DNA from: Eledone cirrhosa
Lineage: Eukaryota
NCBI GenBank assembly: GCA_964016885.1
Contig: OZ024743.1
Location: 30,132,001-30,196,000, forward strand
Direction: 5' to 3'
Length of the DNA stretch: 64,000 nt
Shown here: positions 7,667-24,337 of the stretch, piece by piece
Layout of the letters: every line of letters starts with the position of its first letter
Numbering within the stretch: position 1 is the first letter of the stretch
The notes under the pieces: generated by a model
What the model saw: only the letters and a program-made list of their open reading frames with translations
What the model was told of the DNA's origin: nothing
The model's database searches: none
Position numbers and translations under genes: made by a program

Positions 7667-7891
7667 TACATACATATATATGTATATATACATAAACCTA
7701 TTGATTTTATAAAATATACATATTCATTTTATTAAAAGTAAGTTGTTAGTCTTGTTTGCCTAATAAACATGTGAAACTCCAGAATAAAACTACATACTAT
7801 TTAGCCTTAATGAAATTGATTGGTATTGATTACCCTTATCGGTCAGTCGTCAGTCCACAGACACATTACACACACACGCACACACACTCAC

Positions 7892-7960
<69 letters not shown>

Positions 7961-7966
<6 letters not shown>

Positions 7967-8380
7967 TAAACGGAATAGAAAATGCTGACAAATTGTTCAC
8001 AGTTGAAAAATGGTTTAATTAGGAATAAAAGAGTATTAGTGATTGTATGGGTTAGTATTCAGTTGTGGTTTTAAGTTTTTAAGTTTTTACCGGTTGCGCA
8101 TTTCTAAATGCTTTTCAAAAATAATTTTGAGATAGAGTGTCCGTGCTGTTTGCTCTGATCTGCACGGACACTCTATCTCAAAATTATTTTTGAAAAGCAT
8201 TTAGAAATGCGCAACCGATAAAAACTTAAAAACTTAAAACCACAACTGAATACTAACCCATACAATCACTAATACTCTTTTATTCCTAATTAAACCATTT
8301 TTCAACTGTGAACAATTTGTCAGCATTTTCTATTCCGTTTACCAATATATAATAACTTGTGTGTTACACCTCTATTCTTT

Positions 8381-8386
<6 letters not shown>
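7961..8386 (+). mobile_element. Non-coding foldback derivative of the PLE-2 pLTR (~190-bp arms + ~40-bp tail)
   Basis: 7961-8162 matches 15962-16163; 8162-8386 is the reverse complement of 15923-16147; flanked by (TA)n; variant HHRs at 8085-8121 (-) and 8187-8223 (+). Confidence 0.88.
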
Positions 8387-8442
<56 letters not shown>

Positions 8443-8444
<2 letters not shown>

Positions 8445-15797: not shown

Positions 15798-15832
<35 letters not shown>

Positions 15833-15891
15833 TACATATATACATATACACACATATATATATATATATATACATATATATACATATATAT

Positions 15892-15922
<31 letters not shown>
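14400..15922. repeat. Long compound (TA)/(CA) microsatellite, one of many TA, CA, GA and TAA tracts in the window
   Basis: Direct reading of the sequence. Confidence 0.95.
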
Positions 15923-15928
<6 letters not shown>

Positions 15929-16085
15929 AAAGAATAGAGGTGTAACACACAAGTTATTATATATTGGTAAACGGAATAGAAAATGCTGACAAATTGTTCA
16001 CAGTTGAAAAATGGTTTAATTAGGAATAAAAGAGTATTAGTGATTGTATGGGTTAGTATTCAGTTGTGGTTTTAAGTTTTTAAGT

Positions 16086-16122
16086 TTTTACCGGTTGCGC
16101 ATTTCTAAATGCTTTTCAAAAA
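16086..16122 (-). ncRNA. Variant HHR (UUGAAAA/GCAA core) in the inverted pLTR of PLE-2
   Basis: Revcomp ttt TTGAAAA gcatt taga aatgc GCAAC cg GTA aaa. Confidence 0.6.
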
Positions 16123-16473
16123 TAATTTTGAGATAGAGTGTCCGTGCTGTTTGCTCTGATCTGATTAGTTTTGGGAATTCTACCTGTTTTTATGTTAAAA
16201 AAATGGCTCCAGCGTTATTTTTGTGTTGCAAAAATGCTTGTGGTCAAAACAATTTTGATTGGTCGGTAGAGGTCATGTGAATGTAAAAAGTTGATTTTGC
16301 GCCAAGACTGTTTTTATGTTAAAATGTTAGAAAAGTGGCTCCAGCAAAAATTATGGTCAAAACAATTTTGTTTGGTCGACAAACTTGACTCCACAAATAA
16401 GGAAACCGCCACCGGATACAAACCCTCCGAAATCGGCGACAAACTCCAAAACCTTTGCGATACTATCCAAACT

Positions 16474-17595
16474 ATGTTCACTACTACCAACCCAGGAAAA
16501 ACCAACGAAGAACCATGTGAGATTGATTCACACAAAATGAAAATTCGAACAATTCCAAAATGGAACAAATCCCTCAGAGACAGAAAGTTCTCATTCTGGA
16601 AGATGATACAAAATCACAACAAAGCAGAGATATATGAAAAATGGCTTAACTCAACTCCTCTAACTCTCCCCCGTAAACTACAAATAAAGTCCATTCCAAA
16701 TGAACCCGAACCTCAAAGACACCTTAGGGAAAGAATGGCATTGGAAAAAATGAAGACAGAAATTGAACTTCTTAAACTGAGGGCCCAGACAAATGAGGAA
16801 AAAATCAAAACCATCGATGAAGAGATACTCCTGGAAATCAACAACAAAACTGAAGGCCCCAAGGTAGAGAAGATCTCCAAATTATGGAAAGGGGACTGCA
16901 ACAGAGAAGAACTGAAATCCCTTCAACGCTGGGAAAAAAGTGCCGCTTGGTTCCTACACTATGAATCGACTTTTCAAACGGATTACACCTCCAATAACCC
17001 GTTCATAAAAATAGGAAAACCCATAACTGAACCGCACAACAACTTCTCAAACCCCCAAGCCTCAAACAAACGAAGAAGGAAGCATCACACCGAAGATGAA
17101 CTTCCCAACCTCGCTACCATAAGAAGGAACAAAAACCCAAGAAATCATCTCCCCCAGAATGACATTTACAACTTTCCCCCTTCAAGGAGACACCATACCA
17201 AATCACTCAACTACTACGCGGATTCCTCATCGTCAAACATAGGGAAAAGATACCACCGCCATGATAGATGCAACAACTTCCCCGCCTCAAGGGGACAGCA
17301 AGGTAATTACCATTTTCTCAACTCTCACTTCCACAATACACAACAAACCCACACCACACGATACAACCAACAACGTAGGCCACTTATAACACCACAATAC
17401 AACATGGCACATAGAAACACACACCCATACTCCCAGTACAGGAACACCCCATTCAATCTACAACCACCAACCCGAACCACATTTTACAACAACAAGGAAT
17501 ATAACAAACACAGGAGACCACTTAACATCAGCAGACAACCCCTCTACCCCAACCATTTTTTAGACACAGCACACAGATACAGGCAAACAAAATAA
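16474..17595 (+). CDS. PLE-2 ORF1: charged, coiled-coil-like N-part and basic His/Asn/Arg-rich C-part; true start uncertain
   Basis: Open frame (RERMALEKMKTEIELLKLRAQTNEEKIKTIDEEI); the track start at 16291 lies inside the inverted pLTR; first ATG outside it is at 16474. Confidence 0.65.
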   Translation: MFTTTNPGKTNEEPCEIDSHKMKIRTIPKWNKSLRDRKFSFWKMIQNHNKAEIYEKWLNSTPLTLPRKLQIKSIPNEPEPQRHLRERMALEKMKTEIELLKLRAQTNEEKIKTIDEEILLEINNKTEGPKVEKISKLWKGDCNREELKSLQRWEKSAAWFLHYESTFQTDYTSNNPFIKIGKPITEPHNNFSNPQASNKRRRKHHTEDELPNLATIRRNKNPRNHLPQNDIYNFPPSRRHHTKSLNYYADSSSSNIGKRYHRHDRCNNFPASRGQQGNYHFLNSHFHNTQQTHTTRYNQQRRPLITPQYNMAHRNTHPYSQYRNTPFNLQPPTRTTFYNNKEYNKHRRPLNISRQPLYPNHFLDTAHRYRQTK

Positions 17596-19880
17596 CACAA
17601 GACAGGGAGGAGAAACCGATAGTAATAAAAATTATCAATCTTACTAGTGCAGAACCAACACCCAACCTTATCAACTTACTCTCCAAAGGTCTTAAATTCA
17701 CACCGACCCCACTACGTCCTAACTACTATGAAATGAAGGAAGACATCACAGACTTCTGTAGAAAGTTACGACTTAGTGAACAACTATTCGACCAGTACAA
17801 TGAGGATGAATCATTAGCCAGAAATAGAAGCAATTACACCCCTTCAAAAGGTAGAAATAAAATCCTGGACGAATTCTGTGAACACATCACAAACTTCCCT
17901 TACCAACACTTGCACAGACAAAAACACAAGCCAAACCTCAACAAGAAAGAATGGGAAGAATTAAATAGATTAAAAACCGACAGAACCATTACAATTAAAG
18001 AGGCTGATAAAGGGAGTACAGTAGTCCTAATGGAGACATAATTCTATATCAACTTAGCGCTCTCCACTTTGGAAAACGAAACATACTACGAAAAGGCTGA
18101 ACACTACAATCAACAGAAAATTATGAGAAACCTAAAAGCTCTAATCAACCAATACAAAGAAGGACTCACTAACAAGGAATTCAGCTTCATCACAGACTTC
18201 ACAAGTAAATCCAGCCTTTTCTACGGTATCCCTAAAGTACATAAAAGCGAATCAATCAGTAAGGCATGCAAGGAAGCCACAGACATAGTCATCAATGTCC
18301 CCTCACCCAATGATCTCAAATTAAGACCTATAATAGCAGGCCCCGCTTGCGAAACGCACCGTCTTAGCAACTTCATTGATACCCTTCTCAAACCCTTCCT
18401 CAAGCACATCAAAAGCTATATAAGGGACGACCTAGATATGCTCAATCACCTCCCTATTATGCCACTTTCTGAACAAACCCTACTAGTGACGTTCGATGTA
18501 GTCAACCTATACTCCAACATCCCCCACAACCTAGGAATAGAAGCTATCCAATTCTGGCTGGATAACTTCCACAATGAACTCCCACAACGCATCAAAAAAG
18601 AATTCGTGATAGAGGGACTCAAATTTATCTTGGAGAACAATTACTTCGTTTTCAATAACAAACCCTACAGACAGAAATCTGGGACCGCTATGGGAACGAA
18701 AACAGCCCCTACGTATGCCAACCTAGTCATGGGATACCTGGAAATCACCCTCTACACTAAAGTCCTAAACAAATTTGGAAACACCCTCCACTTACACATT
18801 GAAAGGAACTGGAAGCGATATCTTGATGACTGCTTCATCCTTTGGCACGAAAACATCGAAAAACTTAAAGAATTTCACACCCTTATAAATGGGCTCAACA
18901 CAAATATTAACTTCACGATGGAATACAGCCATCAACAACTCCCCTTCCTCGACATCCTCATTAAGATCCATAACAAAAAAATAGAAACAGACATATACTA
19001 CAAGCCCACAGACTCCAAGCAATACCTCCCCTTCAACTCTTGCCACCCTAGACACGTTAAAATTAATATTCCCTACAACTTAGCCAAGAGAATCTGTACT
19101 ATAGTCTCCAATAAAAACATCTGCTACTTACGGCTACAAGAACTAAAGGACACACTCATAGGCAGGGACTACCCTGCATCACTAATTGACAATGGAATCC
19201 AACGTGCCCTAAAACTCAGTACCCAGGACCTTAGACACCCTAAAGTAAATCAACCAAAACTAAAAGCTCTTCCATACATCTCCACACACAACCCCCTCAA
19301 CAACGAGGCCTTTGACACCATCCTCCAGAACATCCCTGTATTGAAAAAGGACCATAGAATGAACCAAATTCTACGAACACACGATATCATAAAGAGCAAA
19401 AGACAATCCAAGTCAATGAAAAACATCTTAACACATGCCAAAGTACTGCCAACCACAACAACGAAACCCACAGTAAAAAAATGCGATAGACCCAACTGTG
19501 GCATTTGCATCAACCTAATAGAGGGTTCGGAATTCTATTTCAAAGATGGACAACGTTTTATAGTAAAACACAATTTCACATGTGCATCGGAAAATGTAAT
19601 ATATGTATTAACTTGTTCAGGTTGTCGTGAACAATACATAGGCCAGACCAAAAACAGCCTCCGCCAACGCATGACTGTCCATAGATCCCAAATTAAAATA
19701 CGGGAATACAGGAAAATACCACTGAGTGAACACATTGATACCTGCGCCGCCCAAAATCATCCCAACTTCAGAATCTTTCCCCTCTACAAATTTAAAGATA
19801 ATGCCACCCACACCCAGCGCATCAGCAAGGAATCTTACTTCATTAACAAATACGGACCCCGTCTAAACACTTCTCCCTAA
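17559..19880 (+). pseudogene. PLE-2 RT + Cys knuckle + GIY-YIG frame with one premature TAA (18039-18041)
   Basis: INL..LSKGLKFTPTP, EADKGSTVVLM, FYGIPKVHK, LRPII, FDVVNLYSNIP, GTAMGTKTAPTYANL, RYLDD, FLD, CDRPNCGIC, NVIYVLTC..C..QYIGQT, GPRLN. Confidence 0.92.
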
Positions 19881-20061
19881 GACGAACCCACAACATACAC
19901 ACGTCAACATACATACCTACATCAGCACACATCTCTACCCACATATAAACACAATGACACACGTAAACACACATGCTCTATGGTGCAATACAAAAAAATA
20001 TGTGTGCATATATATGTATGTATATATGTATATATATATATGTGTATGTGTAGTGAAAATA

Positions 20062-20101
<40 letters not shown>

Positions 20102-20486
20102 GTGAATATCATTTCACACCTTTTATTGTTAAGATTGTTGATGTTCTATTAAGAGAACCGATTTTACTGAAAAAATCGAATAATGTACACCATTTTACCA
20201 GGGGGGAAAAAATACTGGTCCACCCACACACGCACACACACACACGCACGCGTGTATGCACAAACACATACACACGCGTACATCAACATACAAAGAGACT
20301 TATACACACACACACACACGCACTTCTCCGTATAAGACAAAAGCTGAAAAATATCTTTTGACCTTCGAATGACTCTGCTGTGTGTATGTACGCACACACA
20401 CACACACACACACACTTATCTTAATAGCCATTTGACACACATCGCTGGTGGCTATTGTCGCAGCATCGAACACCTTACTACTACTA

Positions 20487-20520
<34 letters not shown>

Positions 20521-20841
20521 TTGTTGTGAAAGAGTCATTTCTCAATCTTGGCGCAAAACCAATTTTTTATCCACATGACCTCTACCGACCAATCAAAATT
20601 GTTTTGACCATAATTTTTGCTGGAGCCACTTTTCTAACATTTTAACATAAAAACAGTCTTGGCGCAAAATCAACTTTTTACATTCACATGACCTCTACCG
20701 ACCAATCAAAATTGTTTTGACCACAAGCATTTTTGCAACACAAAAATAACGCTGGAGCCATTTTTTTAACATAAAAACAGGTAGAATTCCCAAAACTAAT
20801 CAGATCAGAGCAAACAGCATGGACACTCTATCTCAAAATTA

Positions 20842-20878
20842 TTTTTGAAAAGCATTTAGAAATGCGCAACCGGTAAAA
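20842..20878 (+). ncRNA. Variant HHR (UUGAAAA/GCAA core) in the 3' pLTR of PLE-2
   Basis: ttt TTGAAAA gcatt taga aatgc GCAAC cg GTA aaa; compensated U3-A8, A13C, palindromic ACCGGT. Confidence 0.6.
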
Positions 20879-20996
20879 ACTTAAAAACTTAAAACCACAA
20901 CTGAATACTAACCCATACAATCACTAATACTCTTTTATTCCTAATTAAACCATTTTTCAACTGTGAACAATTTGTCAGCATTTTCTATTCCGTTTA

Positions 20997-21039
<43 letters not shown>

Positions 21040-21120
21040 TTACATACATACACACATAATACATATACATGCATACATATATATATATATATATACATAC
21101 ACACATACATATATATACAC

Positions 21121-22014: not shown

Positions 22015-24156
22015 TTAGCCATCGGGCTTTAACACTGGCTTAAAGTGTTTGAATGTTGCAAAGTTCTTGTGCATGCAGTTCGGGCAGTGTTCAGAGAGTT
22101 TGTTCAGTAGCGGGCCCTTGGCGAATAAAATTTCGTAGCTCTCTGAAATACAAAGGTCGCAGCCCTTGTGTCCTCCGTTGTAAGAGCGCGCTTTCTGGAG
22201 TAATTTCCAATTAAGCGTGAAGGGGGTGGAGTTCCTTTTGAGGTCCCAAACGTAGGAGGCGAGTGTTGTTTGATTTGATTTATCCGGTCTTCTGAAGGAG
22301 TGGGTATGGGCATACCAGCGGGTCTTAAAGGTGTTGGAGGTCATGCCGATGTAAGTTTTTTTGCAATCCTCGGTGCCCGAGATGACATCGCATTTGTATA
22401 CGATGTCATTTGTGAGGCATTTGTTTTCTAGTGGGCATGCTTCCTTATTTAGGCAATTACATAGAGCCCCAGTCCGGGGATTGGTTTCGGAGGTGGTTGG
22501 CTTATTTAGTTTAGAGTTGTGGTTGGCTATATTCCTAGCTAGGTTAGGTGTGGTGGAGTAAGAAAGTCTTATAGTGTTCTTATTAAAGATGGTGTAGTAC
22601 CTATGTTGTATGGGGAAGTGTAATTTCAGTAAAGTGAAGAAAATCCTAGCTATCGGAGTAGATACCTCTCTATTGAAGGGAGGGTTGTACCAGCTAATCT
22701 GCCTATGTCTATTCCTCCTCTGCAATTTTGCGGTGGTTTCTAGGTAAGTTATCTTATCTTTAAATCCGCTACGGGCTAGGGCGTCATTGTAGTAGGAGGC
22801 AGATGCATTAAAAATATCTTTGTTGGCGGAGAGGCCAGATATTCTAATAGAGACGCTTTTTACTAGGTTATCAGTAATGTTTTGGGGGTGGTTTGAATTA
22901 ACATTAATATATTTAAGGGACTCATTAGGTTTGTGGTACGGGTAATAGAGGGAAGTATCTAGGTCGAGAGTGACATCTAAGAAGTTGGCCCTAGTCAAAT
23001 TAGAATCTATAGTTATACTAAATCCTAGATTAGAGAAGAAAGAGCTTAAGTTTTTCCGAAACCCATCGGTGGTTCTGGGGCTAACCTTATGCAGGGCGAA
23101 GAGGCCGTCGTCTCGGTATAAACCTCCAGTTAGGCCGGTAAAGAGGTTCTTCAGGTTATGTAGGATGTACAGGCCCACAAGGTCGCTAATTTCAGCCGAG
23201 TCACTCGCCCCCATGCTAACGTCAAATGGGGTCTGAGATTTCTTGTTGATCCAGTAAGATCCATCGTGGTATAGAAAGGTCTTACGAGCGTGGAGGATAA
23301 TAACTTGCTCGGCATCGGTAATGGTGGTAAAATTCCTGGCAAAGTTAATTGCGTCCTTCAGGAGGGGCTCCGAGATAGAGGCATAGTAGTTTTCTATGTC
23401 GAGTTGCAGGAAGCGAGTGTGGTGTTTATCGGGTAATTCTCGGAACCATGATATTGCCTCAGATGTTCTACTCCAGAGTGGAAGTGATGAGGCCGCCCGC
23501 AGTAATGGTAGAACTCTATCCAGGATCTTCTTACTGATAGAGCCGATGTCAGAACGAGTGGGGTTGATAAGTCTGACTGATGGTTTGTTGAGGAAATTTC
23601 CCTTATGGTCCTTCAGGGTAAAGTGCGGGGTCTTTACCCTTAAAGGTTAGGTTCGGTCATGTAATTTAAGGGACTTGGCGATTTCTTTTCCGGCCGCGTT
23701 TGTCTCAGTCAGCGCCCTCTCTATTACCTTTTTGTAGGTGGTCGTGATGGTATTTTTTGCCAGCTTATTGTAGGTCTGTGGGTCTACCTCATAAACGTTT
23801 TTGGTTTTATCGGAGGAGACATAAAGATTAGGGGATTTTTTTATATTCCGTAATTCGGCATTTAAGTAGGCCTGGAATGGTGTGGTGGCTCTACGGAATT
23901 TAATATCCTTGATCATCTTGAAGAGGTCTTCCTCAAATGGTTGGAGTAGGCTGTTGGTGGGTGGTGTCTTATTCGTTTTGAAGCCGAACTTCTCATCATT
24001 GGTAGATGCTACATCAGGGTTGTCGAGGAAGAAAGCCCTCCATCTAATTCGCTTGATGAACTCGTCGGTACGTCTGATGAGTGTTTTTAAGTATAGTTTC
24101 CTTGGAGGGATAGGGATGTTCTTCAAGGAAATATCAAGGTCGAGTTTGGTCAGCAT
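22015..24156 (-). pseudogene. PLE-3 polyprotein (713 codons; RT + GIY-YIG, Hydra-clade-like) with one in-frame TAA at 23647-23649
   Basis: SLKNIP, RWRAFF, FTLKDHK, LDIENYY, MGASDSAEISDLVG, GLYRDDGL, FLDVT, WYNPPF, CNC..CPL..CL, IVYKC..YIGMT..FKTRW, CDLC..E, LLNK; frame otherwise open by manual translation. Confidence 0.92.
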
Positions 24157-24246
24157 TGTTTCTTGATGATGGTTATAAGGGGCACAGAGAGTGCTAAAAT
24201 GTACGTTATTCCGGGTTATAAATACCATATTTATTTTTTGATACCC

Positions 24247-24297
24247 AGATTCCTGATGATTCCTAATGAATGAAACAGTTCTAGTCCTGTAGAATCT
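24247..24297 (+). ncRNA. HHR in the inverted 5' pLTR piece of PLE-3
   Basis: agattc CTGATGA ttcctaatgaat GAAAC ag ttctagtc ct GTA gaatct. Confidence 0.75.
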
Positions 24298-24337
24298 CAT
24301 CTATATTAAAACTATATATATATATATGTATGTATGC

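Follow-up and report, generated by a model that had tools for sequence, protein, structure and literature searches.

The locus analysed here raises the question of how a reverse transcriptase (RT) is translated when its reading frame overlaps the preceding one in another phase and offers no ATG near the overlap. The element in question is a Neptune-type Penelope-like element (PLE) of a young and abundant family, here called family A, and it lies in a 64,000-nucleotide stretch of the genome of Eledone cirrhosa (Eukaryota; GenBank assembly GCA_964016885.1, contig OZ024743.1, positions 30,132,001 to 30,196,000 of the forward strand). We refer to this whole stretch as the window and number positions from its first letter. 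The copy in the window is 5'-truncated and dead. In it an upstream frame, ORF1, is followed on the + strand by a frame for RT and endonuclease (17526-19880) that stands at -1 to ORF1 and has its first ATG at 17733. We propose that programmed -1 ribosomal frameshifting at a U_UUU_UUA heptamer yields an ORF1-RT-endonuclease fusion, and on the sequence data presented below we regard this as probable.

The junction is compact. The heptamer T TTT TTA occupies 17556-17562 (+ strand), is read CAT TTT TTA in the ORF1 frame and has the form X XXY YYZ. The ORF1 stop, TAA at 17593-17595 (+ strand) with C as the next base, is the 11th codon past TTA, leaving 10 sense codons between them and placing the stop 33 nucleotides (nt) from the A-site codon of the heptamer. 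The -1 frame opens past a TAA at 17523-17525 and carries the motifs IINL (from 17625 on) and LSKGLKFTPTP (17679-17711). No run of six T residues other than the heptamer occurs on the sense strand of the 3.5-kb element (16373-19880), where the T fraction is 0.20. The initial annotation of this DNA had placed the heptamer in the correct phase of ORF1 near its stop and had described a -1 frame running from that TAA into the RT motif with no earlier ATG than the one at 17733; both descriptions are borne out by the sequence. According to our proposal most ribosomes would terminate at the ORF1 TAA and release ORF1 alone, a protein of 436 amino acids (aa). In a minority the tRNAs for Phe and Leu, paired with UUU UUA, would move back by one base and pair anew, and translation would resume at 17562, giving as the minor product an ORF1-RT-endonuclease fusion of about 1,200 aa.

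It was of interest to compare the junction among copies of the element. A DNA search of its own 3.0-Gb genome gave 1,489 candidates, of which 40 were scored, and the same junction with the same -1 offset was present in 30 of 30 top family A loci that were fetched, these having been picked by likeness to the junction. In 16 of the 29 loci other than the window the RT frame is open to the end of the locus. The set was enlarged to 51 loci, 21 of which came from a search with the ORF1 protein and not from likeness to the junction. Over positions 17501-17640 these 51 loci show one indel and one heptamer substitution, so that the heptamer is intact in 50 of 51 and the junction free of indels in 50 of 51. 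Three further families in the same genome have a comparable arrangement. In family B, with 58% identity in ORF1, the heptamer is in phase in 24 of 25 copies and the offset is -1 in 23 of 25; in intact copies the first ATG of the RT frame comes 465 bases beyond the heptamer. In the commonest class of family C both the heptamer and the -1 offset are present in 8 of 8 copies. Family D has the heptamer and the 10-codon spacing in 7 of 7, and in 6 of 7 the junction places RT in the -1 frame. Where a canonical endonuclease-bearing (EN+) PLE would have a single ORF, then, four families have two frames at a -1 offset. The initial annotation had named conservation of heptamer and offset across copies and families as the check on frameshifting, and one continuous consensus ORF, broken by a copy-specific indel, as what would speak against it. 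The conservation holds for the 51 family loci and the three other families, and the offset is family-wide.

Outside this genome, relatives of the ORF1 domain number 601 at E<=0.001 among 50%-identity representatives, and details were taken from the best 150 of these. Among proteins of 330-600 aa, 68 of 78 have the dipeptide F[LF] within the last 50 residues (shuffled sequences: mean 12, maximum 22), compared with 6 in the preceding 50 residues, and the tails that bear it cannot be aligned between relatives. In a curated set of 85, a residue whose codon is unable to end in T precedes FL in none, where 15.7 would be expected; this absence is what a T TTT TTR site, which needs a preceding T, would produce. 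The curated set excludes P0002, P0055, P0071, P0094 and P0127, short proteins with FL inside the conserved domain, as well as P0101 (FF 41 residues from the end, unlike its kin), P0158 (FL five residues from the end) and P0159. In the last of these RT precedes ORF1, and the entry looks like a gene model spanning tandem copies. A search for a fused ORF1-RT protein of 829-2365 aa found none in 6,793 candidates, although this search was a weak one. Few of the ORF1 relatives are named, those among the matches listed being from Mytilus and Octopus.

Public contigs were also searched with an RT motif blind to the junction. The pattern loci analysed numbered 181 (2 viral, 119 metagenome and 60 genome), and an RT match identified 70 of them as PLE-like. 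Within 330 bases upstream of these 70, 11 of 12 T6 runs are in phase; two of these represent a single chance site and the other nine are T TTT TTR. The offset is -1 in all 3 PLE-like loci with a detectable ORF1. In a quick RT tree the heptamer elements form two groups, one of 8 rows and one of 3, and next to them stand groups with an ATGA overlap, acceptor-like sites or a long single frame. The ATGA clade consists of the Neptune-like metagenome loci L089, L091, L095, L103, L105, L114, L117, L119 and L160. In these loci the upstream frame, which exceeds 600 codons in L091 and L103, closes with a helical-looking tail common to the clade, and its stop overlaps the start of RT exactly as ATGA; this is a signature of termination-reinitiation. 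L109 and L129, with their kin L111, L146 and L157, have an AT-rich, stop-filled stretch, with a pyrimidine tract and CAG immediately before IVNLS, and the L109/L129 lineage looks as if it is spliced where others shift frame. In L128 the sequence T TTA AAC is followed directly by TAA, and in L087, L145, L161 and L097 the upstream frame likewise ends at or just past a possible slip site. Six contigs with animal-type PLEs inside bacterial genome bins (L214, L220, L228, L232, L234 and L255) are host DNA contamination.

In the classical description of -1 frameshift sites, an X XXY YYZ heptamer conserved within the overlap is accompanied by a stem-loop or pseudoknot 5-9 nt downstream. The conserved heptamer is present here; such a structure was not found. 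The region 17563-17700 folds at z -0.17 with no hairpin predicted, in keeping with the initial annotation, which had noticed no obvious stimulatory hairpin. In families A and D the bases from +4 to +45 past the heptamer have a folding energy of 0.0 kcal/mol, pseudoknots and long-range pairs lying outside the model, and in all 13 junctions the z value for this interval is above -1. Extending the interval to +75 in the window gives -3.6 kcal/mol and z -1.83. The spacer of family A has almost no U or G available for pairing.

If RNA structure does not stimulate slippage, the position of the ORF1 stop suggests what might. Counting codons past the heptamer, the stop is at +11 in 27 of the 85 curated relatives and earlier in none, where about 50 would be expected from the hazard of stopping beyond +11, these 85 rows not being independent. 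The +11 stop is spread across the ORF1 tree, occurring in 30 of 93 rows with at least 13 changes, and the ten-residue tails between heptamer and +11 stop have no common sequence. The 10-codon spacing also follows T TTT TTG (L142, L172) and A AAT TTT (L136), and four proteins that lack FL carry Asn-Phe or Asp-Phe at the same place. Two simpler origins of the spacing were considered and set aside. It does not simply follow from the IINL motif, which in families A and D and in L133, L136, L142 and L172 comes well after the stop. The need to keep a hydrophobic residue in the -1 frame would make Phe or Leu common at +11 in the 0 frame, and this was seen in 1 of 85.

The spacing of +11 matches that of queued ribosomes. 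In disome profiling, according to the available text of the report, queues form behind pauses and stops every 11 codons, with a Fourier period of 30 nt, and Pro-Pro and a C after the stop favour collisions (bioRxiv 10.1101/710491); Pro or Gly in the P site is also described as favouring them (PMC7784341, available text). A leading ribosome with the ORF1 stop in its A site, 33 nt ahead, would keep the ribosome on the heptamer from translocating, and the roadblock that replaces the usual hairpin or pseudoknot would then be a ribosome slow to leave the stop. In lineages whose stop comes later, a Pro/Gly pause would take over at the position of the +11 stop: when a ribosome has its A site at +11, its E and P sites lie at +9 and +10. 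Granted that frameshifting occurs, the sequences bring a paused leading ribosome close to being an even call as the stimulator. The broader proposal of a PLE clade with structure-free -1 frameshifting, stimulated by a ribosome parked one ribosome length downstream by a stop or a Pro/Gly pause, we put forward tentatively and consider rather doubtful as a whole.

Several observations weigh against frameshifting or against this account of its stimulation. In seven family C copies, selected because their frames are long, ORF1 and RT share a single frame owing to changes in the length of a C run. P0158, with FL five residues before its end, is 1 of 86 against the zone from which stops are otherwise excluded and is either a true exception or a decayed copy. 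The stop is later than +11 in 58 of 85 relatives; a Pro/Gly/Asp pair is present at +9,+10 in 16 of these 58 longer tails (shuffles: mean 3.4, maximum 12), but the pair set was picked after the data had been seen and comes from about three lineages, so that the shuffle p-value is overstated, and about 40 of the 58 are without a Pro/Gly pair at these positions. In families B and C the residue at +11 is Trp, and these families lack any known pause motif. The relatives are represented by proteins without DNA, so their heptamers are read from residues, and they are the best 150 of 601 only. Related elements couple their frames otherwise at the same place, by ATGA overlaps (9 loci) or acceptor-like sites (2 clear loci). 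A search outside which subscription papers lay turned up no published example in which -1 slippage is stimulated by a ribosome that is terminating. With regard to the Trp, we observe that it is encoded by TGG exactly at +11, after a conserved Asp-Thr-Arg, in families B and C and in L116, P0001, P0003-P0007 and P0013, and that the stop in this group is mostly 19-20 codons further on.

Other explanations must be weighed against the proposed frameshift and its stimulation by a queue. Frameshifting may be real and the spacing have another cause: the heptamer might act unaided, or be helped by the nascent chain or by an RNA-binding protein, for which ORF1 is a candidate, and the 10-residue tail would reflect a constraint on the end of ORF1. 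The 58 relatives with other spacings fit such a view, as does the position of FL 11-12 residues from the C-terminus, which is about the depth of the constriction in the exit tunnel. Cardioviruses and arteriviruses provide precedents in their protein-stimulated frameshifts without strong structure. Set against these are the lack of a common sequence among the ten residues, the recurrence of one spacing after differing heptamers and dipeptides (FL, NF, DF), and the near absence of stops inside the 10-codon zone. We give this explanation a substantial chance of being correct, somewhat short of probable. The notion that the offset is a decayed single ORF, due to an indel in the window copy or its parent, draws on the fact that the window copy is dead and on the seven one-frame copies of family C. 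It is refuted for family A by the same junction across its copies and is opposed more widely by the recurrence of the offset in foreign loci and in all four families, and by the finding that none among the best 150 of 601 ORF1 relatives is longer than 546 aa. In the fused copies of family C the C-run lengths vary, other copies shift the opposite way, and 28 of the 104 matches listed share the 427-codon class; we accord decay a negligible probability. The one-frame copies are L043, L058 and L069-L073, the C run lies about 40 bases past the heptamer, and in L069 the heptamer is also broken. We read this run as a probable slippage hotspot; a small fused subfamily of family C is possible, several one-frame copies sharing one run length.

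Two explanations dispense with frameshifting altogether. In termination-reinitiation, ribosomes would restart at a codon overlapping the ORF1 stop (ATA, 17592-17594) to make a separate RT, with the U tract 31-37 nt upstream as a tether. This is how the exact ATGA overlaps at 9 loci of the related clade might be read; heptamer and ATGA occur together in L136, and an ATG stands at that position in family C. Reinitiation needs a close stop and start, tolerates near-cognate starts at 45% or less and is used by SART1 (PMC10275272, available text). It would not explain why the phase of the heptamer is kept though the stop moves by up to 40 codons, nor why X XXY YYZ is the pattern of every one of the three heptamer kinds; the overlapping codon is GTA in L172 and CTA in L142, neither of them near-cognate, and the distant first ATG of family B offers no nearby start. 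We consider reinitiation unlikely. Alternatively, TTTTTTAG might be a 3' splice site, with a donor in or before ORF1 joined to 17564 to make the RT message. The initial annotation had raised this possibility, naming use of the AG at 17562-17563 as an acceptor among the grounds for rejecting frameshifting, and the caution was reasonable. PLEs do carry introns (PMC8557442, available text). All four local families read TTTTTTAG and so have AG, a codon beginning with G follows FL in 61 of 85 relatives, family A has a CTTAAC resembling a branch point some 40 bases upstream, and L109 and L129 have acceptor-like sites just before IVNLS. On the other hand, just 3 of the 9 foreign T TTT TTR sites have AG as the next bases, and in 24 of 85 relatives the residue after FL has a codon that cannot begin with G. 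The only in-frame GTR donor of family A within 1,300 bases agrees with the consensus at 3 of 9 positions, and the families have no such donor in common. Contigs from five runs of unrecorded kind gave no junction into 17564 among those listed, a result that carries no weight on splicing. Splicing would also leave the kept phase and the open ORF1 tail unexplained, and we judge it very unlikely. Programmed -1 frameshifting is the reading that we retain in what follows.

We now turn to the state of the window copy. ORF1 (16373-17595, + strand) is truncated at its 5' end: the frame is open from 16270 to 17595, and the match to other copies begins at 16373. In full-length family copies ORF1 has 436 codons, with its ATG 1271 bases upstream of the heptamer in 11 of the 29 other loci; the cut at 16373 removes this family start codon from the window copy. 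At the truncation point lies an inverted terminal repeat, or pseudo-LTR (pLTR; 15865-16378, - strand, by self-BLAST), which matches the 3' side of the element at 91% (15832-16378 against 21134-20586) and at 99.5% across 415 bases. The 3' pLTR (about 20543-21000, + strand) has a short internal duplication and lies within a (TA)/(CA) microsatellite. In other loci the terminal repeat sits in direct orientation ahead of the ORF1 start, so that pLTRs, direct or inverted, are found in the window element and its copies. A premature stop, TAA at 18039-18041 (+ strand), is private to the window copy, being absent in 29 of 29 other loci. It is from this stop and from the truncation at 16373, where the inverted repeat begins, that we conclude that the copy is dead; neither defect had been mentioned in the initial annotation. 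No hammerhead ribozyme was detected in 15800-21100, either as an Rfam match at E<=1 or as a simple core pattern, although minimal forms could escape such a search. Two more pieces of the same terminal repeat lie head to head around 8162, within 7856-8444.

Both domains expected of a PLE exceed the Pfam cut-offs in the RT frame, RVT_1 at about 18318-18884 (+ strand, E 5e-7) and GIY-YIG at about 19596-19865 (+ strand, E 1.5e-6), which identifies a PLE-type RT with a C-terminal endonuclease. A C-x4-C-xx-C linker before GIY-YIG (19482-19508, + strand), a Neptune/Nematis feature, was recognized by eye by comparing the translation with the Fig. S2 rows of PMC8557442. The Neptune/Nematis combination of CX2-5CxxC and CCHH is present: there is a Cys pair between the GIY and YIG positions, followed by conserved Arg and His. 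The spacer from CxxC to the next Cys is long and by eye closer to the Neptune than to the Nematis rows, the trees having contained no named Neptune RT. Athena/Terminon elements are marked by the lack of a linked endonuclease and by telomeric attachment; in the window element GIY-YIG lies within the RT frame, and copies are found across many contigs. A second PLE, of another clade and 21% identical to the element studied here, lies at 22015-24300 on the - strand. Its RT motifs resemble by eye the Hydra rows of PMC8557442 Fig. S1, and it is split in two frames near 23646-23650, probably by decay.

The product of ORF1 has a conserved, all-helical domain of four long helices (16516-16983, + strand), defined by the 601 relatives and by AlphaFold2 and predicted to form a coiled-coil-like bundle (mean pLDDT 93.6; helices 15-25, 27-59, 79-125 and 129-170). 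It is followed by a low-complexity tail rich in N, R, Q, H and P (17011-17553, + strand), which in translation is unalignable between families. ORF1 has no Pfam family and no Foldseek match at E<=0.001. Its best structural match, to a syntaxin-Habc scaffold, has Z 9.1 and rmsd 6.4 over 124 residues, which is in the common range for helical bundles. By analogy ORF1 is probably a structural protein of a ribonucleoprotein particle. As a predicted helical bundle without a family or specific fold match, it may be called Gag-like only in that sense. The initial annotation had suggested gag-pol-like expression; the frameshift in that suggestion is supported by conservation, and the likeness to Gag is one of analogy and not of homology.

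For an abundant group of animal retroelements these results would correct the gene model, adding a previously unnamed helical ORF1 family of 601 clusters at 50% identity, and the probable route to an ORF1-RT fusion is relevant to anyone reconstituting PLE transposition. If the spacing rule were causal, a natural ribosome queue would act as a frameshift stimulator, and a 200-base cassette together with dozens of natural variants makes the question testable. If the queue model were true, enzyme output would be a readout of ribosome load and termination speed.

Comparison with known systems places the element between several of them. The HIV-1 gag-pol and alphavirus U_UUU_UUA sites have the same heptamer in the same phase, with a structural ORF first and an enzyme ORF after it. 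Those sites have downstream RNA structure, whereas none is predicted for the window element, which also has no Gag homology and no domains of LTR elements. Among PLEs, those whose ORF1 has been described as separated by a frameshift are presumably the Athena/Terminon elements, and we assume that Athena carries a T6A heptamer. The legend of Fig. 1 in PMC8557442 states that in PLEs a frameshift accompanied by a pseudoknot can separate ORF1. Such PLEs have a coiled-coil ORF1 joined to the RT after it by frameshifting, as is proposed for the window element; unlike them, the window element has its own endonuclease and no predicted pseudoknot or hairpin. In the available text of the same paper canonical EN+ PLEs are called single-ORF, and its supplement has four matches for frameshift or ORF1, all about Chlamys. 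A programmed frameshift for EN+ PLEs does not appear in the available text of PMC3846280, PMC6431247, PMC5408684 or PMC6515669, and our search of the literature, outside which subscription papers lay, found neither a PLE frameshift nor queue-stimulated -1 frameshifting described in this form. Neptune EN+ PLEs share with the window element the RT, the Cys linker, the C-terminal GIY-YIG, direct or inverted terminal repeats and microsatellite surroundings (PMC8557442 and PMC12602865, available text). The killifish Neptune has an unexplained ORF1 before ORF2, with no frameshift mentioned in the available text (PMC12602865); that ORF1 does not overlap, whereas the 436-aa helical ORF1 of our element overlaps RT in the -1 frame at a conserved heptamer. 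In bacteria, queuing and slippage have been described at blocked stops (PMC7544508, available text). A 0-frame stop also affects frameshifting in SARS-CoV-2, where, according to the available text of PMC8168617, it tunes the process by letting the pseudoknot refold; there the stop lies five codons on and lower ribosome loading rescues frameshifting. In the window element the stop lies one ribosome length on, with no structure predicted, and if the queue is the stimulator lower loading would instead cut the output of the fusion.

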